Source of the DNA: a phage
Length of the DNA stretch: 64,000 nucleotides
Strand: one strand, 5' to 3'
NCBI GenBank assembly: GCA_037574385.1
Contig: GCA_037574385.1_4529.1
Shown: piece by piece, positions 4,323-47,398 of the stretch
Layout of the letters: every line of letters begins with the position of its first letter
Position numbering within the stretch: position 1 is the first letter of the stretch
The notes under the pieces: generated by a model
The model's database searches: none
The model's input: the letters and a program-made list of their open reading frames with translations, nothing else
Told to the model about the DNA's origin: nothing
Translations under genes and position numbers: made by a program

Positions 4323-5087
4323 ATGGCGACTTATGATAAAAATCTTTTCGCCAAACTAGAAAATCGCGGCGGGTATTCTCAGACAAATGAGACCGAAATC
4401 CTCAATCCATTTGTCAATTTTAATAACTATGAGAATAGTCAGACATTAGCTGATGTTCTAGTGGCAGAAAGCATACAAATGCGCGGTATTGAATGTTTTT
4501 ATGTTCCACGTGAATATGTTGCAGTGGATCTTATCTTTGGTGAGGACCTTAAAAATAAATTTACTAAAGCATGGAAATTTGCTGCGTATCTGAACTCTTT
4601 TGAAGGTTATGAAGGAGCGAAATCGTTCTTCAGCAACTTCGGAATGCAAGTTCAAGATGAAGTTACATTATCTATTAACCCAGGTCTTTTCAAACACCAG
4701 GTTAACAATCAGGAGCCTAAGGAAGGTGATTTAATATACTTCCCAATGGATAACAGTTTGTTTGAGATTAACTGGGTTGAACCATATGACCCATTCTATC
4801 AAGTAGGTAAAAATGCAATTCGTAAAATTACTGCAGGCAAGTTTATTTACTCTGGCGAAGAAATCAATCCGGTGCTTCAGAAAAATGAAGGTATCAATAT
4901 ACCTGAATTTAGTGACTTGGAACTTAACCCTGTTAGAAATCTTGACGGTATCCATGACATTAATATCGATGAATATTCTGAAGTTGAGCAAATCAATTCA
5001 GAGGCAAGTGAATACGTTGAGCCGTATGTAGTAGTTAACAACCGTGGTAGACAAAATTCACCATTTGACGATGGGTTTATGAATTAA
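4323..5087 (+). CDS. 14: neck protein gp14
   Basis: 254 aa, T4 gp14-like N-terminus [15 protein letters not shown]; synteny. Confidence 0.92.
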
Positions 5088-5136
5088 TAAATAGATAAGA
5101 TAAAGCAAACACCGGTCGAAAGGCCGGTTAGGAGAA

Positions 5137-5961
5137 ATGATGTTTGGTTATTTTTACAACTCGTCGTTCAGGCGATATATCACAATGATGGGCGATTTGT
5201 TTTCAAATATCCAAGTTAACCGTCAATTGTCTACAGGCAATAAATTAATTAGAGTTCCTATTACGTATGCATCTAAAGAGCACTTTATGATGAAACTTAA
5301 TAAATGGACCTCTATAAACTCACAAGAAGATGTGGCTAAAGTCGAAACTATTCTACCACGTATAAATCTCCAAATGGTAGATTTCGTTTATAACCCGACT
5401 TTTAAAACGAATATATTGAATAACTCTCTTTTGAGTAAATCGACTAAGGATATTGTAGACCAATACAACCCATCACCAATTAAAATGATTTTTGAACTGA
5501 GCATCTTTACTCGTTATGAAGATGATATGTTTCAAATCGTTGAGCAAATTATTCCGTATTTTCAGCCGCATTTTAATACGACTATGATTGAGCAGTATGG
5601 ACAGGATATTCCATTTGAAAGGGATATTAAAGTCGTATGGATGTCAGCAGCAATGGATGAACAAATAGATGGTGATAATTTATCCCGTCGACGTTTAGAG
5701 TGGTCATTAACATTTGAAGTAAATGGATGGATGTATCCTCCGGTAGGCGCAGCCGAAGGCCTTATTAAAACGACTTATCTTGATTTTCATGCTAATGAAC
5801 GAGACCTTCAAACAGCCGCCAGTGTTTTTGAATCAGTTGATACAGAAATTAAACCGAGAGACGTTGAAGCACAAGATTGGAATGGTGAAGTTGAACAAAC
5901 TTATACTCATGATATTCCAATCCCGACTCCACCAACCCCTCCTGGTCCTAGAAAACAATAA
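5137..5961 (+). CDS. 15: tail sheath stabiliser / tail completion protein gp15
   Basis: 274 aa; MFGYFYNSSFRRY... matches T4 gp15; start may be the second ATG at 5140. Confidence 0.93.
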   Translation: MMFGYFYNSSFRRYITMMGDLFSNIQVNRQLSTGNKLIRVPITYASKEHFMMKLNKWTSINSQEDVAKVETILPRINLQMVDFVYNPTFKTNILNNSLLSKSTKDIVDQYNPSPIKMIFELSIFTRYEDDMFQIVEQIIPYFQPHFNTTMIEQYGQDIPFERDIKVVWMSAAMDEQIDGDNLSRRRLEWSLTFEVNGWMYPPVGAAEGLIKTTYLDFHANERDLQTAASVFESVDTEIKPRDVEAQDWNGEVEQTYTHDIPIPTPPTPPGPRKQ

Positions 5962-8314: not shown

Positions 8315-10297
8315 ATGGCACTTCTCTCTCCGGGCGTTGAGCTCAAAGAAACTACCGTACAGAGTACTGTAGTTAATAACTCCACTGGTACTGCTGCCCT
8401 GGCTGGAAAATTCCAATGGGGACCTGCATTCCAGATTAAACAAATCACCGATGAAGTTGCGTTGGTTGATATGTTTGGTACTCCTAACACAGACACCGCA
8501 GATTATTTCATGTCTGCTATGAACTTCCTTCAATATGGTAATGACCTTCGTGTTGTACGCGCTGTTGATCGTGATACTGCTAAGAACTCATCTCCTGTGG
8601 CAGGAAACATTAATTTTACTATTTCTTCGGCTGGCACCAACTACAGAGTCGGTGATAAAGTTGTAGTTAAATATTCTACAGATGTTATCGAACCAGACGG
8701 TGAAGTTACTTCGGTTGATTCTGACGGTAAAATTTTGAATATCTTTATTCCTTCAGGTAAAATTATCGCTAAAGCGAAAGAAATCGGCGAATATCCTGAA
8801 TTAGGTTCAAACTGGACTGCCGAAATGTCTGGGTCTTCTTCTGGTCTATCTGCAGTAATTACTATTGATTCCGTTGTAATGGATTCTGGTATTCTGTTGA
8901 CTGAAGTTGAAACTTCAGAAGAAGCTATTACTTCTCTAACTTTCCAAGAATCTATTAAAAAATATGGTGTCCCGGGTGTAGTTGCTCTTTATCCAGGTGA
9001 ACTTGGAGACCAGCTCGAAATTGAAATCGTATCTAAAGCAGACTATGACAAAGGTGCTTCAGCCCAGTTAAAAATTTATCCTGATGGTGGCACTCGTTAT
9101 TCTACTGCTAAAGCAATCTTTGGGTACGGTCCACAGACCGATGACCAATATGCAATTATCGTTCGTCGCAACGACGCGGTAGTCCAGAGCGTAGTTCTTT
9201 CTACTAAACGTGGTGAACGAGATATTTATGGTAGCAATATCTTCATTGACGATTTCTTTGCTAAAGGCGCAAGCAATTATATTTTCGCTACGGCACAAGG
9301 TTGGCCAAAAGGTTTCTCTGGCGTAATCAAACTGAATGGTGGCTTATCATCTAATGAAACGGTTGAAGCCGGTGATTTAATGGAAGCTTGGGATTTGTTT
9401 GCTGACCGCGAATCTGTTAATGCGCAGTTGTTTATTGCCGGTTCTTGTGCAGGCGAATCTTTAGAAGTTGCTTCCACTGTTCAGAAACATGTTGTAGCAA
9501 TTGGTGATTCTCGCCAAGATTGTTTGGTTCTTTGCTCACCGCCACGTGCAACTATAGTCGGTATTCCTGTTAATCGTGCAGTTGATAATCTGGTTGATTG
9601 GCGTACTGCGTCAGGAACTTACACCGATAATAACTTTAATGTAAGTTCTACTTATGCTGCTATTGACGGTAACTATAAATATCAATATGACAAATATAAT
9701 GACGTGAATCGTTGGGTTCCATTAGCTGCTGATATCGCTGGTCTTTGTGCTCGCACAGACAATATTTCTCAGCCTTGGATGTCTCCTGCCGGTTATAACC
9801 GTGGACAAATTCTTAACGTTATTAAGCTTGCAATTGAAACTCGCCAAGCGCAGCGTGATCGTTTATATCAGGAAGCTATTAACCCTGTTACTGGTACTGG
9901 TGGTGATGGGTATGTTCTGTACGGTGATAAAACTGCCACTTCTGTTCCTTCGCCATTTGACCGTATTAACGTTCGTCGTTTGTTCAATATGGTTAAAACG
10001 AACATTGGTTCAGCATCTAAATATCGCCTGTTTGAATTGAACAACGCATTTACCCGTTCTTCTTTCCGTACAGAGACTTCTCAATATCTACAGGGTATTA
10101 AAGCTCTCGGTGGTGTATATAACTTTAAAGTTGTTTGTGATACTACCAATAACACCCCGGCAGTTATCGACCGTAATGAATTTGTAGCTACTTTCTACTT
10201 ACAACCTGCCCGCTCGATAAATTATATTACGTTGAACTTTGTAGCAACAGCAACTGGTGCTGATTTCGACGAACTAATTGGTGCTGTAGGTGGCTAA
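8315..10297 (+). CDS. 18: tail sheath protein gp18
   Basis: 660 aa; T4 gp18 length and sequence pattern; synteny. Confidence 0.96.
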   Translation: MALLSPGVELKETTVQSTVVNNSTGTAALAGKFQWGPAFQIKQITDEVALVDMFGTPNTDTADYFMSAMNFLQYGNDLRVVRAVDRDTAKNSSPVAGNINFTISSAGTNYRVGDKVVVKYSTDVIEPDGEVTSVDSDGKILNIFIPSGKIIAKAKEIGEYPELGSNWTAEMSGSSSGLSAVITIDSVVMDSGILLTEVETSEEAITSLTFQESIKKYGVPGVVALYPGELGDQLEIEIVSKADYDKGASAQLKIYPDGGTRYSTAKAIFGYGPQTDDQYAIIVRRNDAVVQSVVLSTKRGERDIYGSNIFIDDFFAKGASNYIFATAQGWPKGFSGVIKLNGGLSSNETVEAGDLMEAWDLFADRESVNAQLFIAGSCAGESLEVASTVQKHVVAIGDSRQDCLVLCSPPRATIVGIPVNRAVDNLVDWRTASGTYTDNNFNVSSTYAAIDGNYKYQYDKYNDVNRWVPLAADIAGLCARTDNISQPWMSPAGYNRGQILNVIKLAIETRQAQRDRLYQEAINPVTGTGGDGYVLYGDKTATSVPSPFDRINVRRLFNMVKTNIGSASKYRLFELNNAFTRSSFRTETSQYLQGIKALGGVYNFKVVCDTTNNTPAVIDRNEFVATFYLQPARSINYITLNFVATATGADFDELIGAVGG

Positions 10298-18024: not shown

Positions 18025-19032
18025 TTATGATACTAATTCAATCCATGCAGGACGCAGAACATCTTGCACCATTCGGACTAATTCTTTCTTAACAAGATTC
18101 GGATTATCAGATGATGTTAATACAATACCTTCACGAGAAGTTTCTTCCAGAATATCTTGAACAGTCAATCCCATCACTTTGCCAAAATCTTTTGACGTTA
18201 CAGTCCCAATCTTAGAAATAACATTATTAACAGGATTTAATGTAACATAACAAGCTAGAACATCAAGCAAGTTTTTGTCAATTTCAGTTAATGGAACCCG
18301 GGTTTTAATAGGCTTATCAGACTTTTTCTTTTCACTGAATTTAGAGTTCTTGCACTTAATCGCTACACGAGTACCGTTTGGCAGCCATTTAGGGAAACAA
18401 GGCTTCAGAACATAACCTTCTGCCGTATTATCGCCAATAACATTAGCATCAAATACGCAATTATTTGCTTCGACAAGGTCTTCTGATGCAGTAGCGTTAT
18501 AAGCGGCTAAGACGGAATCAAGGTCGTTTGGAATCATGATAAGAGCATCAAATGTTCCACGTCCAAGCATTGGTGCCATTTTAAAACCAAACGTATTACA
18601 TAAATCTTGCATTTCGTAATCACTCATGTAATAAGTATCACCGCTTTCCGTGTTTATGATGATATCGAATACATAGAAATCTTTTTCACCGTAGTCAACA
18701 CCTTTCTGAATTCCACCACCAGCGAATTCACCAAAGACTTGATATGTCACCGGCACTGAAGTTGAAATACTGCCCATGACTTCTTGAACGCCTTTAATAG
18801 CTTTATCATACTTTTTGAGTACTATTTCATAGCCATAAAAATCTTCTGCTGGAAGAATAGGGCCTGTGCGCTTGGCGCATGTGACGTTGTCACGTTCAAT
18901 TATTAACGAGAAGTTAGTCCCATGGATTTTCTCACGTGCTACCCAAACACCAGTAGTCAAACCGTTAGTGTAGAGTTTTTCAATAAACTTAGAGTTGTAG
19001 TGGTTTTCAAGACTGCTGTATTTCTTAAACAT
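18025..19032 (-). CDS. rnlB: RNA ligase 2
   Basis: 335 aa; near-identical N-terminus to T4 Rnl2 including KIHGTN adenylation motif. Confidence 0.96.
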
Positions 19033-32262: not shown

Positions 32263-32292
32263 ATAGTATCACACATCCATGTGTTTGTAAAC
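32263..32292 (-). promoter_or_regulatory. early-type promoter GTTTAC-N18-TACTAT overlapping alt stop
   Basis: Minus strand GTTTACaaacacatggatgtgtgaTACTAT. Confidence 0.5.
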
Positions 32293-34379
32293 TATCCTTG
32301 GACAAATTTAAACGGAACCGATTCCAAATCCATTAAAGATGCTAACAGTTTCAATCCTTTAGGTGCACTGTTTATTTCTACGAATGAGGCAAAAGATACC
32401 GGCTCATCTGATTCGATTTCACCCGTCATAGCAACCACCTCGCCTGTTTCCATGAGAACATCACCGTCGTAAATGACTGCTTCATCCAACTGGTCAGAGG
32501 ACATGACTTCGGCTTGAATAAATTTAAGGTTGGATTCTAAACCTGCACCAGTGTCAGATGACGCATCTGTAATTTTATTTATCTGCAAGAGAATGCCTCT
32601 AGGCAAAATAATTTCTTGCTCATTAGGGTGATTACTCAACTGTCCTGGATAAATCACGTTAACTTTATGAGCACCATCAATAGCCCATCCAACGTTAACA
32701 CGGATTTGTTCTGGTGCATGCATAGCTGTTCTTACTTGACTAGGAGAAATAGTAACACCTTCGTCATTATTGTCAATGTTAAGCTCTTTGCGAACTTCTT
32801 CAGGAGCAAGTCCAAGGGCAACGTTTTCTTTAAACCCGCCAAAAATAATAGGAGCTAATGAAGTAGAAACATAGTTTCTGAAGTAGAATACCTTATTTTT
32901 AACCATTGCTTCATAAATAGGCATTCTGATAGACTGAGCTCTATACAACGTTAGTCCTTCAGGTAAACGGTCTCCGTTTAAAAACGCTGAATCAAGACCA
33001 TCAATAGCGCGTTTAACTTCATCTTCATCTGCAACATCGTAAAAATCTGGTTTATAACGTCCTAACAACATATTATTGATATCGGTATACGCAGAAGAGG
33101 CATATTCACGAATAGCTCGTTTTTCAGCAACAGAGTATTGTTTAGGGTCCCGATTCATTGTTATATTAAAGGTGCCTCTAGCCGATTCTCGTGCATAAGT
33201 ATACATCACATTAGACAAGAACGCTGATTTACGTTGTTTCCAAGTTTTTTCAGATACTTCAGCTAAAACGTCGTCAGCCAGTTGGAAATTATCTCGTCTA
33301 AAATCTTCAAACCATTCGTCTTTAATAGAGTCTGCAATTTCGTTTGCAGCTTCAACAAAAGCAGCTAATGCTTTAACAGATGTTGTTTTTTCGGTTTTAA
33401 TTTTCTTAGCAAACTTTTCTAAAGTTGGCTTAATAACACTACCATAAGAAACTTCATCAGCAAATCTAAAGGATTCATCAATACGATTATAAATCTTATT
33501 TTCGATATCAGCAACTAAAGTGCCTTTTGCTGTGGATGATGCTTGGGCTAGTACGATTTCATATGCTTCAGGAAGTAATTCGGCTGTAGCTGGGCCACTA
33601 ACTTCTTTAGCAGAATTTTCGTATTTCTGGAATAACTCACCTTCTTGGCGGTCAGCTTCTAAAGATTGGCTTGCTGCAATAGCACGACGAGAAATTTTAG
33701 TATGAGCAATAACAGGCTTATCTTTACGTTTTTCTTCTACAGCAGCAATAGAACCAGCGATAGCAGTTTCTTTGGTGACCGTTTCGCCGGTCTTTTTACT
33801 CACATAAACTTCGCCAACATCAGAATCTACTTTCGTGTACAACTCTGTGTTAATGTTAGGGATGCCTTTAATATCTTCAATGTTGGCATTTTTACGAACC
33901 ATCATCACATAGGTGTGTTTACCTGTGAATTGATACATTGCAGACAATACTTTAAAACGACCACCAGTTTTAGTAGAAACTAAACGAGCAAGAAGAGTTT
34001 GAAGCTGCTGACCACGTCCTTTCAATTTCTTGGTAGGGAATCGGAACAGAACTGCATCCATACGAAGAGCTTTAACCTGTTCATATACTGTATTGAAAAT
34101 GGTGTTGATTGCATCAATAGGAGCAGGACCAAGGCCATTTTTCAATTCAGCGAGATTACCCTTTTCAGACAGACTCATAATAACAACATGAGCATATTTA
34201 TCGCCAAGTTTAACTTGTTTTACAGCGTCGCCTTCAGAAAGGTAAGAGAATAAGCGAACTACGATGTTTGTATCGATATCACCAATTTTCCAGACTTGTG
34301 GAACTTTAGCTTTAGGGTTCAAATTGACGACAGGAAGACTGCCTTCAGATTCAAACACTTCATTTAATTGTTCAGACAT
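32292..34379 (-). CDS. alt: Alt ADP-ribosyltransferase (packaged into the capsid in T4)
   Basis: 695 aa; N-terminal and central similarity to T4 Alt; position between gene 54 and DNA ligase. Confidence 0.88.
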   Translation of the reverse strand: MSEQLNEVFESEGSLPVVNLNPKAKVPQVWKIGDIDTNIVVRLFSYLSEGDAVKQVKLGDKYAHVVIMSLSEKGNLAELKNGLGPAPIDAINTIFNTVYEQVKALRMDAVLFRFPTKKLKGRGQQLQTLLARLVSTKTGGRFKVLSAMYQFTGKHTYVMMVRKNANIEDIKGIPNINTELYTKVDSDVGEVYVSKKTGETVTKETAIAGSIAAVEEKRKDKPVIAHTKISRRAIAASQSLEADRQEGELFQKYENSAKEVSGPATAELLPEAYEIVLAQASSTAKGTLVADIENKIYNRIDESFRFADEVSYGSVIKPTLEKFAKKIKTEKTTSVKALAAFVEAANEIADSIKDEWFEDFRRDNFQLADDVLAEVSEKTWKQRKSAFLSNVMYTYARESARGTFNITMNRDPKQYSVAEKRAIREYASSAYTDINNMLLGRYKPDFYDVADEDEVKRAIDGLDSAFLNGDRLPEGLTLYRAQSIRMPIYEAMVKNKVFYFRNYVSTSLAPIIFGGFKENVALGLAPEEVRKELNIDNNDEGVTISPSQVRTAMHAPEQIRVNVGWAIDGAHKVNVIYPGQLSNHPNEQEIILPRGILLQINKITDASSDTGAGLESNLKFIQAEVMSSDQLDEAVIYDGDVLMETGEVVAMTGEIESDEPVSFASFVEINSAPKGLKLLASLMDLESVPFKFVQG

Positions 34380-34623: not shown

Positions 34624-36116
34624 TATAAACCTGTCTGGGACCACGGTCCAAATACGTCTTCAAACGAATCCGCTTCTGTTTTATCAAAACGGAACCCTTT
34701 AATAATTGGAAGGAAAATACCTACAGTACCTTCACGGCCTTTAGAATGAACCCAACCATTACATTCGCAATCAGCAATACGTCCGATCAATTTACCTTCA
34801 CGAGCTTCGGTCATTAATCGTTCACGGTCTAAATCATGACGCTCGTCTAAAGGAATAAGAACCTTTACACCGTCAACTGTTTTATGAGTTGTATCTTTAA
34901 AACCTGAACCACAATCGGTTGTAATACGACGACAACGTGATACGAGTTCGACACCGCCTAATTTGTTAGGGTCTTTAGAGTGTTCATAGTATCCTACAAC
35001 TTCTAAAGCGATATCAATAACTTCTTTAAATTTAATTAGGTTCTTAGAGCGTTTGTTTTCCCAATATGAATCACGGTTTTTAAGGATAATACCTTCAAGA
35101 CCTTGGTCAACATATTTTTTATAAACCACTTTAGCTTCATCAAGATTACGAACTAACTGGTTTTCGATAGGTTCAATTCGTTTAAAGCCTTCAGCCATAT
35201 TTTCAAGAGCAGCAAAACGAACATCGTATTTCTGACCTTTAATTTTGCCATCAGAATAGACTTCATCTAAAGGAACATAGTCCCAGGCTTGAAGAACCAT
35301 ACCTTCCGCTTCTTTAGGAGAAATAGTCCCTTGAAGAGATTTATTTGCTAAACCATTTGAAGTGCTACGGTCTGCAACTTGTACTTCTTCGGATTCTTCA
35401 TTATCACCAAATAAGAACGACAGGTCATTTCCTGAGCTCACAGCCTTTTTAATATCAAATGAATGATAAACTAATTCACCATCAATTAAAACCCCATTAG
35501 GGTGTCTTTCACGAGCTTCTTTAGTCATTTCCATTAGTTCATCTGCTAATAGGGTAAGACCATGGTATTCGTTACCGGCGCGAGAAAAGAATTGAACACC
35601 ATCATCGCGAACTTCAGCGAAACAACGAGCACCATCTGCTTTTAATTGGGCAAATGCGGGCCATTTAATATTTTTAGTAATCAATTTCTCATCATATGCA
35701 GATGCTAACATCTGTGGTTGCAATTGAATAAGACCAGGCCACACCTTATTCGCGATAGACACTGAAGCACCTACTTCAAGGTCGCGCATCATTACACGAC
35801 GAAGGACTTCTACATCATCAGGTTTACCATCAGCGATATAACCCATGAGCTCTTTAATTGCAGCATTACCAGTGAGTTTACGAGTGGCTAATGTGAACTC
35901 AATAAAATCCAACATGTCATCTAATTCAAGAAGACCATATGCTTGGGACCTTTCACCTGGTCCTGGCCATTTCTTAATATAATACTGGATACCACGTGCA
36001 TATGTTAAACGATACACACGTTCAAGTAATTTGTTGTCCTTATTTTTCTTAAGGATTTCCTGTTTTGTTTTAGTAGAACCGATCGCAGCTATTTGGTTTA
36101 AAATATCTAAAATCAT
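34623..36116 (-). CDS. 30: ATP-dependent DNA ligase gp30
   Basis: 497 aa; KADGARC adenylation motif; N-terminus near-identical to T4 ligase. Confidence 0.97.
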   Translation of the reverse strand: MILDILNQIAAIGSTKTKQEILKKNKDNKLLERVYRLTYARGIQYYIKKWPGPGERSQAYGLLELDDMLDFIEFTLATRKLTGNAAIKELMGYIADGKPDDVEVLRRVMMRDLEVGASVSIANKVWPGLIQLQPQMLASAYDEKLITKNIKWPAFAQLKADGARCFAEVRDDGVQFFSRAGNEYHGLTLLADELMEMTKEARERHPNGVLIDGELVYHSFDIKKAVSSGNDLSFLFGDNEESEEVQVADRSTSNGLANKSLQGTISPKEAEGMVLQAWDYVPLDEVYSDGKIKGQKYDVRFAALENMAEGFKRIEPIENQLVRNLDEAKVVYKKYVDQGLEGIILKNRDSYWENKRSKNLIKFKEVIDIALEVVGYYEHSKDPNKLGGVELVSRCRRITTDCGSGFKDTTHKTVDGVKVLIPLDERHDLDRERLMTEAREGKLIGRIADCECNGWVHSKGREGTVGIFLPIIKGFRFDKTEADSFEDVFGPWSQTGL

Positions 36117-36382
36117 TTGATGTCCTCGATTTTGGTTACGGTTCTATTATAAGCCACTTCATCTAGAAGCGATTTCAGCGTTTTCTGATAAGTGGTAATC
36201 CGTTTACCGAGTCCTTCAACATAATATTCTGAAATGTAGATAAACCCTTGTTCAACACACTCTTTAAATATTTCTGCGTCTTTTACTGAACGAAACAACG
36301 GCCAGTCTCGAAAGAACATGTTAACGTGACCGTAGTCACGTATGGTATTTTTGCCATCTGTAATATCATGAACTACAAACAT
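36113..36382 (-). CDS. hypothetical protein (89 aa)
   Basis: ORF coupled to ligase start (ATGA overlap). Confidence 0.6.
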   Translation of the reverse strand: MFVVHDITDGKNTIRDYGHVNMFFRDWPLFRSVKDAEIFKECVEQGFIYISEYYVEGLGKRITTYQKTLKSLLDEVAYNRTVTKIEDIK

Positions 36383-36391
36383 AATTAACCC

Positions 36392-37210
36392 TTAACAATT
36401 TATAGTCCATTTAGACGAATCTAAAGGAAAGTTTTGAATCGTCCACCATGGCTGCATATCGGTTGGTCCTGGGGTTCGCCAGGTATATGGAGTACGTGTT
36501 GTCGAGGGGCCACCAATTTGATTAGGCCATGCACCTGGACTTGTTGCACCAGATTCTTTAAGCAAATCCGCCAATCGTTTTAAAAGGTCTTCACGATCTG
36601 AATCCGAATTATGCTCGGGTGGAACCAAACGAGATTCAATATCATCCCACGTGTGTACACGTTGTGCAGTACGAGGAATATCATCACGTTCACCACGGGC
36701 CAACCAATAAATCGGTACATTAAGAATTTCTGCCGCATGGTCACAATGATGAGCTAAATCGTCAACGTAACAAATTACGTTATATTTTGTTTTAGCTAGT
36801 TCGAATAATTGTTCCTTTGAAGAATCATGACCACACATCATTACTTCAGAGAAAGCGCCTGGGAACAAAGCATTCAAATTAAATTGTCTATTCAATCGAG
36901 CATCAATTGAATCACCTAACGCCGTTACGGCTACAAAATTATAGTCTTCTTTTAGTTTATTGATAACTCGAAGAGCATCCGAATAAGGCGCTAAGTAACG
37001 AATAAAATCAGAGCGATTATATTTTTCTATTAATTGTTTACCAAGGTTATCGTCGGTATTGAATAGTTTACCAGGAGAAATAAATTTTTCGTCCTGAATC
37101 ATTTTTAAAATATGTTCTAATGGAAGATTATATTTTTGGGCAAAATAAGGAAGTCCAGATTGCCAGCTTAAACATACACCATCAATATCAGTCAAAATAG
37201 TAGGCTTCAT
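36392..37210 (-). CDS. HAD-superfamily hydrolase-like protein with unusual Trp/Pro/Thr-rich C-terminal tail
   Basis: 272 aa; HAD motif I DIDGV near N-terminus and motif IV CYVDD; C-terminal ~50 aa low complexity. Confidence 0.7.
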   Translation of the reverse strand: MKPTILTDIDGVCLSWQSGLPYFAQKYNLPLEHILKMIQDEKFISPGKLFNTDDNLGKQLIEKYNRSDFIRYLAPYSDALRVINKLKEDYNFVAVTALGDSIDARLNRQFNLNALFPGAFSEVMMCGHDSSKEQLFELAKTKYNVICYVDDLAHHCDHAAEILNVPIYWLARGERDDIPRTAQRVHTWDDIESRLVPPEHNSDSDREDLLKRLADLLKESGATSPGAWPNQIGGPSTTRTPYTWRTPGPTDMQPWWTIQNFPLDSSKWTINC

Positions 37211-37674
37211 AAAGAGTCTCTTAATAGGTTTAACACATCAATAAATTCAGCTTCAGTTAGTATTGTATCATCTTTTGTTAGGTGGCTGGCCATGCTATGC
37301 TTCAAAATTTTTCCTTTAGAGGCTTGTAAGGCATCGCGAAACCCCTTGTTTTGGATCGCTGCTTCAAAATATGCATTTGTGTATAATTCTTTCCACGCTT
37401 CAGAGTATCTTGAAAATGGAACTCCTAACCAGAAGAGAGTCCCATAGTCCTGAGCTCTTGCATAAGACCTTCCAGCTTGCTGTGCAGCCAATCCAGACAA
37501 CCCAAATATACGTCTTTGATGTTCAACATTTTTCACCTTACATCCTTGGAGAAATCCTTCAAGACCTCCGAATTGAATACCATCCATGACAAAAGGCCAT
37601 TGGGCGAAATTACTTAATGCACATGACGGCCATTTGAAATTACTTCTTATTTCTAATTCAGACATCTTTAACAC
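37207..37674 (-). CDS. NADAR / YbiA-like (DUF1768) protein
   Basis: 155 aa; ALSNFAQWPFVMDG, EGFLQGCK and C-terminal LNLLR segments align with E. coli YbiA motifs. Confidence 0.7.
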   Translation of the reverse strand: MLKMSELEIRSNFKWPSCALSNFAQWPFVMDGIQFGGLEGFLQGCKVKNVEHQRRIFGLSGLAAQQAGRSYARAQDYGTLFWLGVPFSRYSEAWKELYTNAYFEAAIQNKGFRDALQASKGKILKHSMASHLTKDDTILTEAEFIDVLNLLRDSL

Positions 37675-37864
37675 TTATAATTTCAACATCAGCCCAATGA
37701 CCATAACCAGGTATACGGTCTTCGATAGATAAATTTCCGTCATTTTTAGGCATTTTAATTGACGTAATGTATGGTTCTAAACGGTTTTCTGCATAATATG
37801 GAAAAACGTCTGTTACACGATAAGTAACTTCAATCATTTCCGTACCAAACAATTTCTTAAGCAT
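37658..37864 (-). CDS. hypothetical protein (68 aa)
   Basis: ORF in co-directional array. Confidence 0.5.
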   Translation of the reverse strand: MLKKLFGTEMIEVTYRVTDVFPYYAENRLEPYITSIKMPKNDGNLSIEDRIPGYGHWADVEIISVKDV

Positions 37865-37868
37865 TTTA

Positions 37869-38156
37869 TTAGAACCTCATCTGAAAGCCATGTGATTTAA
37901 CATTACCGCCGCCAATATCAGAAATGTTAATTTCACTTGCAATCGAAGGATCGATGTCAATTTCACGATTAAGTTTAGTGATAGCTAAAGTATCATGCCC
38001 ATTTACTGTACGAAACTCCAAAGGACATACTACGTTGACATAGTGTTTAATTGACTCGCTAGTAGGTTGCAAATGGGCCGGAAGGTCTTTAGGTGCTTTA
38101 GAGAAAACAACTTCACAAAAGTTTTTGCGGGTATCAAAATAAGTGGTCATAAACAT
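37869..38156 (-). CDS. hypothetical protein (95 aa)
   Basis: ORF in co-directional array. Confidence 0.55.
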   Translation of the reverse strand: MFMTTYFDTRKNFCEVVFSKAPKDLPAHLQPTSESIKHYVNVVCPLEFRTVNGHDTLAITKLNREIDIDPSIASEINISDIGGGNVKSHGFQMRF

Positions 38157-38172
38157 AATATTTTCCTCAATA

Positions 38173-38188
38173 GGGAGCCGAAGCTCCC
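38173..38188 (-). other. stem-loop GGGAGC-CGAA-GCUCCC
   Basis: Intergenic GC hairpin between two minus-strand ORFs; no clear U-tract. Confidence 0.4.
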
Positions 38189-38195
38189 AGTTAAA

Positions 38196-38561
38196 TTAGA
38201 TATCGAATTCATTAAGAACTACATCAAAGATTGCTTCGAGATGTTCAGGTTTAGCTCGGTTACTCAGGATATGACGAATCCAAGTTTTAACCAAAAGTTT
38301 ACGATTGACACCGTTCCAGCAAGGATGAGTACCTAAATCACGCTGACGGAAATCATCATCTAATGCAATTTTGAAGTTGGAACCTTCCATCGTGATTGAA
38401 ACCGTGATGCCATTTTCAAATCGCATATAAACGTAATTAGGAGTCATGCACTGTTCGATTTCACAAACTGTACCGTTTTTGTGTTTCCATAAGCAAATAA
38501 CTTCAGAAGAACCAGCGATACCGTTAGAAACATATTTACGTTCGAAGTTGATGTAGTTCAT
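38196..38561 (-). CDS. hypothetical protein (121 aa), member of tandem cassette pair
   Basis: Preceded by early promoter + GGAGA RBS cassette nearly identical to that of the next gene upstream; contains CMTP motif shared with neighbour. Confidence 0.65.
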   Translation of the reverse strand: MNYINFERKYVSNGIAGSSEVICLWKHKNGTVCEIEQCMTPNYVYMRFENGITVSITMEGSNFKIALDDDFRQRDLGTHPCWNGVNRKLLVKTWIRHILSNRAKPEHLEAIFDVVLNEFDI

Positions 38562-38602
38562 TTTATTCTCCAGATGTTTAAGTTGTTTGTTGGTACAGGT
38601 CT

Positions 38603-38631
38603 ATAATAACATAACCTGTACCAAAGTAAAC
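38603..38631 (-). promoter_or_regulatory. early-type promoter GTTTAC-N17-TATTAT
   Basis: Minus strand GTTTACtttggtacaggttatgtTATTATagacc upstream of the 121-aa ORF. Confidence 0.5.
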
Positions 38632-38635
38632 TGTT

Positions 38636-39004
38636 TTATGCAACTTTAATCCAATTGTCTAAATTTAAAACACCTTTGGCTTTCATTTTTTCGATAAGGT
38701 TATCTGCTGTAATGCGTCCATTTTGATACCATGTAACATCTTCAGAGTAACCAGTTTCTTCGTCAACATATGTTTCTGAACGAATTTTACCGGTAATAAT
38801 AGTTTTTAATTCGTATGTGTCACCTGTGAAAAAGTTTGCTAACACAATTTTCCAAGAGAAATCATTTGAAGGACCTTCAGGGGTCATACAACCTACGATC
38901 TCAAATTGCTCTTTGTATAACATCCATTGGAATTCTTTAATTTCGATAGCTTTATAACCGTCGTGGTCTTTACATTCGATGTATGAGTTCAGATTGATTT
39001 TCAT
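38636..39004 (-). CDS. hypothetical protein (122 aa), member of tandem cassette pair
   Basis: Own early promoter (GTTTACtctcc...TACTATAGAC) and identical leader cattttattctccag. Confidence 0.65.
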   Translation of the reverse strand: MKINLNSYIECKDHDGYKAIEIKEFQWMLYKEQFEIVGCMTPEGPSNDFSWKIVLANFFTGDTYELKTIITGKIRSETYVDEETGYSEDVTWYQNGRITADNLIEKMKAKGVLNLDNWIKVA

Positions 39005-39111
39005 TTTATTCTCCAGTTTGTTTTATTGATTAGGTGGTACAAGTCTATAGTAACACATCCTACAGGAGAGTAAACATCTTTTTAAACTTTTTCTGCCCTA
39101 AACACACAAAA

Positions 39112-39129
39112 GGGAGACCGAAGTCTCCC
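39112..39129 (-). terminator. intrinsic terminator GGGAGAC-UUCG-GUCUCCC + CUUUUGUGUGUUU
   Basis: Hairpin 6 nt downstream of the 58-aa basic ORF stop on the minus strand. Confidence 0.8.
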
Positions 39130-39134
39130 TAAAA

Positions 39135-39311
39135 TTATGCAACAACCTTTCCAAAACGAGAAGCATCATCTCGAAGAACTGCACGTGCTCTGCGCATGAT
39201 CTTCTCAACTGTTTGATTAATACGAGAGTTCGACCCACGCTTGTATCCAGCGCGTTTAGAATCACCGACTTTCTTTTCAACTGCTTTCTTTGCTTTAGTT
39301 TGTTTTGCCAT
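39135..39311 (-). CDS. very basic small protein (58 aa), missed by ORF track
   Basis: ATG-to-TAA ORF translating MAKQTKAKKAVEKKVGDSKRAGYKRGSNSRINQTVEKIMRRARAVLRDDASRFGKVVA; terminator immediately downstream; track reports different frames here. Confidence 0.55.
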   Translation of the reverse strand: MAKQTKAKKAVEKKVGDSKRAGYKRGSNSRINQTVEKIMRRARAVLRDDASRFGKVVA

Positions 39312-39683
39312 TATAAATTCTCTTTAAATGAAAATGCAGGACTTATTGACATTGCCTGCTCAAGCCCTCAAGGGGAACATAGGTTTTTGGATATTTAACG
39401 ACCAGGATAACCATAAACCCGTCATCATACCTTATAGCTCTTATCTGTTGCACACCGTTAGCTTAAAGGTTCCGGGTTCGATTTCTCGAGGATAAGATAT
39501 ATACTGATGGATATATAGGCCTTGAGGCGTACTCCCGATTAGCCATCACCTCGGGGTAGCATGCACTTACCGCTATAAGAACAACATTCAAGAGGTACAC
39601 CGTAAAATTGTCGGGGCGGTACTTCTAAAACATACCGATTCGCAAATCGATAATCAGACAATTCGACGGCTCCTCGATTTAAC

Positions 39684-39932
39684 TTACTTCAGGGTAATAA
39701 CAAAATGACGAACTGCTTTACGAGCTGCTGAAGCCAGAGGCTTAGCATATTTCAATTCATCTTTCTGAGCCAGGATATCACGAAGATCGGCCTGTGCTGG
39801 ATTCAGATGTTTGAAATATCGCAGGATTTCCAGTGCTTCGGCTTCAACATCAATTGACGCGCCGTAGTTTTCGTGGCCATTATTCCATGCATGGCGTTGC
39901 AGTTCAAGAGCGTGTTGTAATTGTTTAATCAT
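39684..39932 (-). CDS. rIII: RIII lysis inhibition accessory protein
   Basis: 82 aa; MIKQLQHALELQRHAWNNGHENYGASIDVEAEALEILRYF as T4 RIII; adjacent to gene 31. Confidence 0.93.
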   Translation of the reverse strand: MIKQLQHALELQRHAWNNGHENYGASIDVEAEALEILRYFKHLNPAQADLRDILAQKDELKYAKPLASAARKAVRHFVITLK

Positions 39933-40056
39933 TTTAAATTCTCAATTCGAGATAATATTTAGTAGCCACGTTCGTCTGAATTTCACCTTCTTTCGACAGG
40001 TCTCTCAGTTGTAGGCTACCGCTTAGAAGAGTGTTCTCTTCATATAGTTATTTATA

Positions 40057-40755: not shown

Positions 40756-41326
40756 AAAAGTTTCGGATTTGTTCCCAATTCAGAGAACGAAGATTATTAC
40801 GAGAGTACTGAATTACTTCAATACCAGCTTGTTTTAGAATATCTGCCCAATTTTCAGGAGATCTGTCATATAATTCTGCGTATACAACCTTTTTAATACC
40901 TGACTGCGTAATAGCTTTAGTGCAATCAGGACACGGAGAAAGCGTCGTATATAACGTAGCACCTTCAATAGAATTACCTTTACGAGCGGCAAACAAAATT
41001 GCATTCAATTCTGCGTGGATTTCATTATTAGCAGACCATGCACTATGAGCAGCTCGATGTTCTTTAGCTAAAACAAAATTATCTACCCGTCCAAATGCTG
41101 TAGTGCCTTCTTTATGACCAGCAATGATGACAGGACTCGGCTTGTTCTTCAACCAACCTTGTTCAGTAGCATGGTCACAACAGTTTATACCACCTGCCGG
41201 GCTACCGTTATACCCAGTAGAAATGATACGTCCATCTTTTTCAATGACGGCACCTACTTTCCATGAACAACATTTTGATTCTTGAGAAATCAGATATGCA
41301 ATCTGAAGGTATGTGCTAGCTTTCAT
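40745..41326 (-). CDS. cd: dCMP deaminase
   Basis: 193 aa; zinc-binding HAELNA and PCPDC motifs; length as T4 Cd. Confidence 0.95.
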   Translation of the reverse strand: MKASTYLQIAYLISQESKCCSWKVGAVIEKDGRIISTGYNGSPAGGINCCDHATEQGWLKNKPSPVIIAGHKEGTTAFGRVDNFVLAKEHRAAHSAWSANNEIHAELNAILFAARKGNSIEGATLYTTLSPCPDCTKAITQSGIKKVVYAELYDRSPENWADILKQAGIEVIQYSRNNLRSLNWEQIRNFCGE

Positions 41327-42318
41327 TATTGAACCTTATTAATATAAGTTAACAGCTCTTTAGTTTGTTCCCAACTGATGCACGCATCGGTAACGGAAAC
41401 GCCATAGGACATATTATCAGAAATTTTTTGATTTCCTTCATGTAGGAACGATTCTATCATAATTCCTTTGACCAAATCATTAGCTGCTAAATTTTTACCA
41501 ATACCAATTTGATTGCTATAATGCCCATCAGCGTTTGCATGGCTACAGTCAACCATCACATAATGATTCAGACCTACTGCCCTTGCTTTGTTAGAAGCTT
41601 CTTGAATATCAGAAGAATGATAGTTCGGGCCGTTGGTCCCGCCACGCAATACGATATGCGTATTCTGATTACCTTCAGCTTCAACAATGCCTACAGTACC
41701 ATCGACGTCCATACCCATATACCGATGAGGCCAGGCGGCACTATACATCGCGTCTGTAGCTACTTTAATAGAACCATTGGTTGCGTTCTTAAAGCCTACG
41801 CACATCGGTAGACCTGAAGCAATTTCACGATGTGTCTGACTTTCAGTCGTACGGGCGCCAATAGCAACCCATGAGAAAATACCAGAAAGATACTTAATCG
41901 TGAATGGGTCTAATACTTCAGTTGCTAATGGAAGTCCCATACGTAGAAGTTTACGACACAATGTTCGTGCAACTATAAGACCGTGGTTCATATCAAAACT
42001 TCCGTCAAGATATGGATCATTTACAAGACCTTTCCAACCTACGGTAGTTCGAGGCTTTTCAAAATAAACGCGCATCACTAACAGAACATTAGGAAGACGA
42101 GTTTGAAGTTCAGCCAGACGTTTGCCGTATTCAACAGCAGCAATAGGGTCATGAATTGAACAAGGACCTACAACAATAAGTTTGCGTGGGTCTTCACCGT
42201 TCATAATCGAATTAACTTGTTCGCGATGAGAAGCCACTTGTGATGCGTAAGCTTCCGACAAAGGAATAATCTCAGCCAGTTCTTTTGGAGAAATAAGTTT
42301 TCCGACGACAGGTAACAT
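41326..42318 (-). CDS. 3-deoxy-D-arabino-heptulosonate 7-phosphate (DAHP) synthase, class I AroG/F/H-like
   Basis: 330 aa; LIVVGPCSIHD, KPRTTVGWKGL, IGARTTESQ, CVGFKN, IVLRGG motifs align with E. coli AroG over full length; stop overlaps cd start. Confidence 0.9.
   Translation of the reverse strand: MLPVVGKLISPKELAEIIPLSEAYASQVASHREQVNSIMNGEDPRKLIVVGPCSIHDPIAAVEYGKRLAELQTRLPNVLLVMRVYFEKPRTTVGWKGLVNDPYLDGSFDMNHGLIVARTLCRKLLRMGLPLATEVLDPFTIKYLSGIFSWVAIGARTTESQTHREIASGLPMCVGFKNATNGSIKVATDAMYSAAWPHRYMGMDVDGTVGIVEAEGNQNTHIVLRGGTNGPNYHSSDIQEASNKARAVGLNHYVMVDCSHANADGHYSNQIGIGKNLAANDLVKGIMIESFLHEGNQKISDNMSYGVSVTDACISWEQTKELLTYINKVQ

Positions 42319-43411: not shown

Positions 43412-43412
<1 letters not shown>
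43221..43412 (-). CDS. hypothetical acidic protein (63 aa)
   Basis: ORF whose stop overlaps pseT start. Confidence 0.5.

Positions 43413-44498
<1,086 letters not shown>

Positions 44499-46264: not shown

Positions 46265-47398
<1,134 letters not shown>

Follow-up and report, generated by a model that had tools for sequence, protein, structure and literature searches.

We identified a minus-strand gene in a 64,000-nucleotide stretch of phage DNA (the window; GenBank assembly GCA_037574385.1) that is very probably a functional orthologue of T4 adfN (gene 30.3), encoding a NADAR DNA guanine ADP-ribosylglycohydrolase that counters DarTG1. The identity and intactness of the gene, its fold and the conservation of its catalytic residues come from the present analysis and are laid out first, followed by the published activity of its close relatives and by what its neighbours may, or may not, contribute.

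The minus-strand ORF at 37207..37674 opens with GTG and encodes 155 amino acids, and its translation includes CALSNFAQWPFVMDG, EGFLQGCK and LNLLRDSL; an earlier note on this DNA, made from the letters alone, had described an ORF of this length and quoted signature strings that are indeed present in it. This is a genuine gene and not a chance ORF, as it matches PF08010 (Phage_30_3; ‘Bacteriophage protein GP30.3’) over the full model length (E = 1.7e-68, 229 bits against a cut-off of 36) and as tblastn with its protein found matches in 1511 phage records. The locus shares 98.7% identity with Shigella phage ESh27 and 96.3% with phage RB69, by which the window can be assigned to a T-even Mosigvirus phage. 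Synteny with RB69 and T4, with 30.4 upstream and 30.2, 30.1, DNA ligase (30), alt.1 and alt downstream, places the ORF as gene 30.3, and on these comparisons we take it to be the adfN of a Mosigvirus phage close to RB69.

The length and start of the ORF require correction. Translation of adfN most likely begins at the ATG at 37665 and yields 152 rather than 155 amino acids, because the equivalent ATG is the annotated start in the T4, RB69, Bas46 and Bas47 orthologues, because it shares 8 nucleotides (ATGTCTGA) with the stop of gene 30.4, and because the published E36/K43 numbering is reproduced by this start only. The adfN coding sequence (152 amino acids plus stop) would then span 37207..37665 on the minus strand, assigned by homology as an intact allele of a phage-type NADAR DNA ADP-ribosylglycohydrolase. 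Three extra codons before this ATG (GTG TTA AAG, 37666..37674, minus strand), included by the mechanical ORF call, belong to the 3′-terminal part of gene 30.4 and probably lie outside the translated AdfN.

AdfN is a minimal, core-only NADAR-fold N-glycosidase. The window protein has the YbiA-like alpha+beta fold by which the NADAR superfamily is recognized, and a profile built from 62 members of the gp30.3 family matched E. coli YbiA (PDB 2b3w; E = 0.0036) across the LSNF...E...K segment; together with the conserved catalytic residues described below, this bears out the earlier description of a NADAR/YbiA-like protein. The check proposed for that description, an HMM search with the generic NADAR/DUF1768 model PF08719, fared differently: the window protein gave no match to this model even at E <= 10, and taking that result literally as a refutation rejects a true NADAR wrongly. 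Because 21 of the 62 family members individually do match PF08719 (best E = 1.5e-7), the miss shows how far the sensitivity of this one model reaches and does not speak against a place in the superfamily. A search of solved structures with the single window sequence returned a marginal match to YbiA alone (E = 0.99), as the closest structure, and PADLOC and NCBIfam gave no match for gp30.3, gp30.2 or gp30.4.

Six residues, L17, S18, N19, F20, E36 and K43, are invariant across the 62 family sequences and align with the FSNF...E...K of YbiA. Glu36 (codon GAA, 37558..37560, minus strand) reads as the catalytic glutamate equivalent to E43 of PnNADAR and E88 of the E. coli C7 NADAR; it is the glutamate whose absence the earlier note had named as refuting. 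Lys43 (AAG, 37537..37539, minus strand) would be the lysine that coordinates the phosphate, corresponding to K50 of PnNADAR and K95 of the C7 NADAR; both catalytic residues were defined structurally in PnNADAR, where the role of the lysine was also described (PMC11543638). The putative third active-site position is His123 (CAT, 37297..37299, minus strand), which is invariant in the 62-member alignment and directly follows the strand at 120–122 in the structure model. At this position the YbiA type carries Glu, the DarG1 type Asp and the phage NADARs His (PMC11543638, PMC12945103). The Glu that the YbiA subfamily carries on the last beta-strand (equivalent to PnNADAR E125) is absent from the window protein, which has His123 instead and by this residue would be a NADAR of the phage type.

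Both the activity of the enzyme and its phenotype in counter-defence come from the literature on orthologues 95–98% identical to the window protein. Johannesman et al. (Nat Commun 2025, PMC11825919) renamed T4 gene 30.3 adfN, for anti-DarT factor NADAR. In their study, all DarTG1-escaping recombinants from RB69 × T2/T4 crosses had gained the 3′ part of 30.3, deletion of adfN made T4 and T2 sensitive to DarTG1, and ectopic adfN alone fully rescued RB69 on DarTG1. Purified AdfN stripped ADP-ribose from DarT1-modified DNA, the E36A, K43A and C-terminally truncated variants were impaired, the C-terminal helix was required for full activity, and a two-hybrid test between AdfN and DarT1 was negative, with no toxin binding (PMC11825919). 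Independently, Cihlova et al. (PMC11125620) found that T4 gp30.3 hydrolyses guanosine-ADPr in vitro and is inactive on thymidine-ADPr, and a 2026 study lists the phage NADAR family among the G-ADPr hydrolases and does not name it as removing C-ADPr (PMC12945103). In a T4 transposon (HIDEN-SEQ) screen, 30.3 was non-essential on K-12 and was lost on DarTG1 (log2FC -7.25; preprint 10.1101/2025.11.20.689424). The counter-defence role suggested from the bare sequence, reversal of guanine ADP-ribosylation by a DarT-type toxin, has thus been demonstrated for T4 gp30.3, 95% identical to the window protein (PMC11825919, PMC11125620).

By analogy with these orthologues, infection of a DarTG1 host would lead the DarT1 toxin to ADP-ribosylate guanines of the replicating phage DNA and block replication. 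AdfN would then hydrolyse the N-glycosidic bond between guanine N2 and ribose, with Glu36 and His123 placed around the distal ribose and Lys43 on the diphosphate, releasing free ADP-ribose and restoring replicable DNA so that replication could resume. It would do so enzymatically on the DNA, without binding the toxin. This mechanism is incomplete, as AdfN-T4 fails to replace DarG1 or to rescue uninfected cells from DarT1 (PMC11125620, PMC11825919) and gives phages T5 and Bas25 barely any help, independently of T4 DNA modifications (PMC11825919). A T-even factor or context is needed besides AdfN, and the authors of that work suspect a further T-even protein.

A different main role, as a small-molecule N-glycosidase acting on riboflavin intermediates, like YbiA, or on soluble ADP-ribose-derived immune signals, with DNA repair as a side activity, would fit the chemistry of E. 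coli YbiA and the plant COG3236 enzymes (cited in PMC11543638), and YbiA is the closest single-sequence match among solved structures. We give this reading very little credence: the third catalytic position has the His of phage NADARs and not the Glu of YbiA, DNA de-ADP-ribosylation and conditional essentiality specific to DarTG1 have been directly shown in T4, and the gene is non-essential without DarTG1. YbiA itself differs further from the window protein in having riboflavin-intermediate N-glycosidase and swarming roles and in removing C-ADPr, an activity for which the phage NADAR is not listed (PMC12945103). AdfN may nevertheless have a further small-molecule substrate besides DNA.

We compared the window allele with its characterized orthologues, which it would be expected to resemble in behaviour. 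The window protein is identical to T4 AdfN at 145 of 152 positions (95%), with identities of 98% to the Bas47 allele and 97% to the Bas46 allele. None of the seven substitutions from window to T4 (K11R, H49Q, Y74R, E89P, I120V, M125I and H128G) falls at an invariant or nearly invariant column of the family; H49 and Y74 of the window protein are absent from the T4, RB69, Bas46 and Bas47 alleles. At the DNA level, adfN is 88.9% identical to its T4 counterpart, with 35 codon changes that are synonymous and 7 that are not, and identity to T4 drops to 54–66% for alt, ligase, 30.1 and 30.4 and to only 54–68% over the flanks of the locus. By this ratio, and by its high identity between diverged flanks, adfN is under strong purifying selection.

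The C-terminus decides whether the allele is alive. In RB69, a T inserted at gene position 411 removes the last 15 residues, which inactivates the protein and accounts for the DarTG1 sensitivity of this phage (PMC11825919). A decayed, non-functional allele like that of RB69 might have been suspected here, as the locus is 96.3% identical to that of RB69, and RB69 is indeed the closest genome background, with 96% protein identity over the 137 shared residues. DNA alignment shows that RB69 carries its one additional T after ...ATACTAAC and that the window lacks it; RB69 gp30.3 stops at residue 137, whereas the window ORF continues to the conserved terminus ...EAEFIDVLNLLRDSL. The C-terminal helix (residues 138–152, modelled as a helix at 138–151; 37210..37254, minus strand) is present in full in the alignment and the structure model. 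By exact match, the RB69-type insertion occurs in 2 of the 599 phage records containing the stretch, both of them RB69, and is private to that phage. With the RB69 frameshift missing, the window allele is intact and full-length; every invariant residue is in place, and the 35:7 ratio also speaks against decay. We see virtually no chance that the allele is dead in the manner of RB69, a reading that is refuted at the sequence level and could be revived only by a sequencing error in the window. As the phage carries the full-length rather than the frameshifted allele, it is predicted to be DarTG1-resistant, unlike RB69. The Mosigvirus phages Bas46 and Bas47 are fully DarTG1-resistant although they carry the inactive R164 variant of AdfA (PMC11825919).

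Downstream, gene 30.2 (36392..37210, minus strand; phrog_420) encodes a 272-amino-acid protein, and 4 nucleotides (ATGA) are common to its start and the adfN stop. The protein comprises a HAD phosphatase-like core (about residues 1–200) and a disordered, hypervariable C-terminal tail: the AlphaFold (AF2) model is confident over residues 1–200 (pLDDT >90) and disordered after about residue 225 (tail <50). Foldseek with this model returned 106 PDB matches at E <= 1e-3, all of them HAD proteins, with 5′(3′)-deoxyribonucleotidases as the most compact matches (target-normalized TM of about 0.62–0.69). The four HAD motifs, I (DxD), II (T/S), III (K) and IV (DD), could be traced, with D8, D10 and K132 invariant and T96 and D150/D151 nearly so. 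Sequence models saw less: Pfam HAD models stayed below threshold (HAD_2 scored 15.5 bits, below the 23.8 cut-off), and among 50 relatives of gp30.2, 11 matched PF00702, 8 HAD_2 and 7 NT5C, all weakly. A gp30.2 profile found no meaningful match among PDB sequences, so that the HAD fold was revealed by the fold search only. The model thus shows a genuine, Rossmannoid HAD fold, and the HAD-like hydrolase that the earlier note had placed next to the NADAR holds up. Our literature search found no study of gp30.2.

Functional coupling of the two proteins, which the same description implied, was not supported. We surveyed 86 loci encoding a gp30.3 relative for a gp30.2 homologue within 4 kb. One directly overlapped gp30.3 at 17 loci, all T4-, RB69- or Acinetobacter-type, and the 4-nucleotide ATGA overlap was kept in every one of the 17. 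It lay apart from gp30.3 at six others, 0.7–1.2 kb downstream at five and 0.7 kb upstream at one, and was missing from the remaining 63, where the downstream genes form about 47 unrelated clusters. In the T4 DarTG1 screen, insertions in 30.2 were neutral (71 sites, log2FC -0.12, p = 0.61; 10.1101/2025.11.20.689424), so the gene is dispensable there. Given its absence from 63 loci and its neutrality in the screen, gp30.2 as a cofactor of AdfN is rejected as the main explanation; the NADAR–HAD pairing is restricted to T-even-like and Acinetobacter phage lineages.

A two-enzyme pathway, in which the NADAR frees ADP-ribose or a ribosyl intermediate that the translationally coupled HAD protein then processes, would make gp30.2 the ‘additional T-even protein’. 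The conserved ATGA overlap, the HAD fold complete with its four catalytic motifs and the T-even context needed by AdfN-T4 would fit such a pathway, as would the 5′ end of 30.2, which is as conserved as adfN (90–93% nucleotide identity). In Vibrio phage nt-1, moreover, a different HAD gene (‘deoxyribonucleotidase’) at another genomic position overlaps the 3′ end of gp30.3. We considered this protein as a gp30.2 homologue and rejected it, as motif I alone aligns between the two (23 columns, probability 74%). That the nt-1 protein shares only this motif, that insertions in 30.2 are neutral and that most loci lack the gene leave the pathway very unlikely; the rescue of RB69 by ectopic AdfN alone is uninformative on this point, as RB69 has its own gp30.2.

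The gene alt (32292..34379), encoding a bona fide ADP-ribosyltransferase (ART; PF03496), lies 2.8 kb from the ORF. The earlier note had remarked on an Alt about 3 kb away; the distance stands, and the functional relevance does not, since alt was dispensable in the same T4 screen (log2FC -0.01; 10.1101/2025.11.20.689424) and its position is ordinary T4 synteny. That gp30.3 might reverse or tune ADP-ribosylation by the phage’s own transferases Alt, ModA and ModB would explain this distance and would suit the early expression of T4-like NADARs alongside ARTs (Iyer et al.). We regard this as extremely improbable. Alt-type enzymes target arginines in proteins. The linkages on which NADARs have been found to act are instead N-glycosidic ones at bases, at guanine in all families tested and at cytidine in the NADAR and YbiA families only, not the phage family (PMC11125620, PMC12945103). 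The alt insertions were without a DarTG1 phenotype, and the distance between alt and gene 30 reflects conserved T-even order, gp30.3 lying elsewhere in distant phages.

The ORF had also been placed within a block of repair counter-defence genes. The window does contain pseT (43412..44311), rnlA (46265..47389) and rnlB (18025..19032); calling them a block is generous, as they lie about 5.7, 8.6 and 18 kb from the ORF, respectively, in standard T-even gene order and not in a dedicated island. A promoter and terminator scan of 36000–40000 gave sites no more numerous than in shuffled sequence. Taken with the survey and the neutrality of 30.2 and alt in the screen, the NADAR–HAD pairing and the proximity of Alt are T-even synteny and not a demonstrated functional link.

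Among known systems, the window gene is closest in kind to T4 adfN, with which it shares PF08010, the 152-residue length and 95% identity, E36, K43 and H123, the C-terminal helix and the overlapping gene order 30.4–30.3–30.2–30.1–30. It differs in its setting, as the window phage, with its arabinosyl-hmC DNA (PMC8594841), belongs to Mosigvirus and T4 to Tequatrovirus, and as the annotated internal ORF 30.3′ and gene 30.5 of T4 are missing from the window. In contrast to DarG1 (G. lovleyi 8bat; E. coli C7), the window gene is an orphan: its neighbours are 30.4 and 30.2, no DarT1 toxin gene lies beside it, and the sole nearby ART, Alt, belongs to another family. DarG1 also has an N-terminal basic DNA-binding extension of the YbiA fold, where the window protein is core-only, and Asp rather than His as the third catalytic residue, and AdfN-T4 cannot take its place in uninfected cells. 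AdfN-Bas32, AdfN-Bas60 and AdfM are likewise phage-borne, orphan antitoxin-like hydrolases that remove ADP-ribose from DNA. The NADARs of Bas32 (T5-like) and Bas60 (Vequintavirinae) belong to other clades and, unlike AdfN-T4, are active without T-even context, and AdfM (the T4 Tk.4 macrodomain, anti-DarTG2) is unrelated in fold, with thymidine-ADPr as its substrate.

Directly upstream, gene 30.4 (37658..37864, minus strand; 68 amino acids, phrog_2042) ends 8 nucleotides inside adfN. Its product is 53% identical in amino acids between window and T4 and is limited to Tevenvirinae loci (15 of the 86 gp30.3 loci). Two genes were significant in the T4 DarTG1 transposon screen, and the second, after 30.3, was 30.4 (log2FC -1.79, adjusted p = 0.014), a hit that the authors left undiscussed (10.1101/2025.11.20.689424). 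The simplest reading of this signal, because 30.4 overlaps the adfN start, is a polar effect on adfN expression, though 30.4 may have an accessory role of its own; it may also be translationally coupled to adfN. A more speculative reading, which we consider unlikely, is that the overlapping 30.4–adfN–30.2 trio forms a functional module, in which the fast-evolving gp30.4 would be the T-even helper and gp30.2 would have some other task, linked to ADP-ribose or to nucleotides, to which DarTG1 assays are blind. A helper role for gp30.4 would explain why AdfN works only in T-even infection.

The gene family, its fold and chemistry, the phenotype and the loss-of-function allele of RB69 were already known, having been published in 2024–2025. 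That an anti-DarT NADAR function was correctly inferred from raw sequence is a calibration point for such readings, and the PF08719 result shows that this HMM by itself overlooks true phage NADARs. The upstream overlapping gene 30.4, as second hit of the T4 screen, offers one small lead. For the phage itself, an intact adfN in an RB69-like background predicts plating on DarTG1 hosts, which is relevant to the choice of therapeutic and model phages.

Directly upstream of adfN, the gene for the NADAR-fold DNA ADP-ribosylglycohydrolase AdfN, lies gene 30.4 (37658-37864, minus strand); its stop and the start of adfN share 8 nt. In a T4 transposon screen against DarTG1, 30.4 was the sole significant gene besides adfN (log2FC -1.79, adjusted p 0.014), a signal left without comment by the authors (10.1101/2025.11.20.689424). 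Because of the overlap, the 30.4 signal could reflect either polarity on adfN or an accessory role. gp30.4 evolves fast, with 53% amino-acid identity between the window and T4, and the adjoining adfN is 95% conserved.

AdfN of the window carries His49 and Tyr74, neither of which was seen in the T4, RB69, Bas46 or Bas47 alleles, which have Q at position 49 and R or H at position 74. Variation occurs at both sites, and the loop that holds residue 74 is the one modelled with the lowest confidence. The annotated internal out-of-frame ORF of T4, 30.3' (8403-8630 of the T4 comparison sequence, L002), was compared with 37207-37674 (minus strand) and had no counterpart there, adfN containing no same-strand ORF of at least 40 aa, which speaks against the conservation of 30.3' as a gene.

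Gene 30.5 is missing between 30.4 and 30.6 in the window (37864-37869), as it is in RB69, whereas it is present in T4, Bas46 and Bas47. The window therefore has the RB69 arrangement at this point within the genus, here combined with an intact adfN. Further upstream, before 30.8, a GC-rich terminator-like hairpin followed by a T-run on the gene strand (39111-39130, minus strand) may mark the start of a 30.8-to-30 transcription unit; in a scan of 36000-40000, the count of terminator-like sites was not above that in shuffled sequence.

Downstream of adfN, the HAD-fold gene 30.2 is 90–93% identical in nucleotides to its T4 counterpart over the first ~50 codons but hypervariable in its tail (32–50%). 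This 3' end (36392-36610, minus strand) encodes the C-terminal ~70 residues of gp30.2, a segment with many P, W and T residues that is predicted to be disordered (AlphaFold, pLDDT < 50). Vibrio phage nt-1 has gp30.3 at a different genomic position, between a-gt.4 and gp47 (5001-5952 of comparison sequence L006), and an unrelated HAD 'deoxyribonucleotidase' gene overlaps its 3' end; the NADAR–HAD juxtaposition in nt-1 may have arisen independently.

Elsewhere in the window, a 330-aa DAHP synthase (41326-42318, minus strand; PF00793, E = 5e-75) is encoded directly beside the dCMP deaminase gene cd, a site occupied by small cd.x genes in T4 and RB69. This gene was found in 213 phage records, mostly of T-even-like phages of E. 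coli, Shigella and Klebsiella, with at least 95% amino-acid identity in 140 of them. It appears to be an auxiliary metabolic gene that serves the synthesis of aromatic amino acids.
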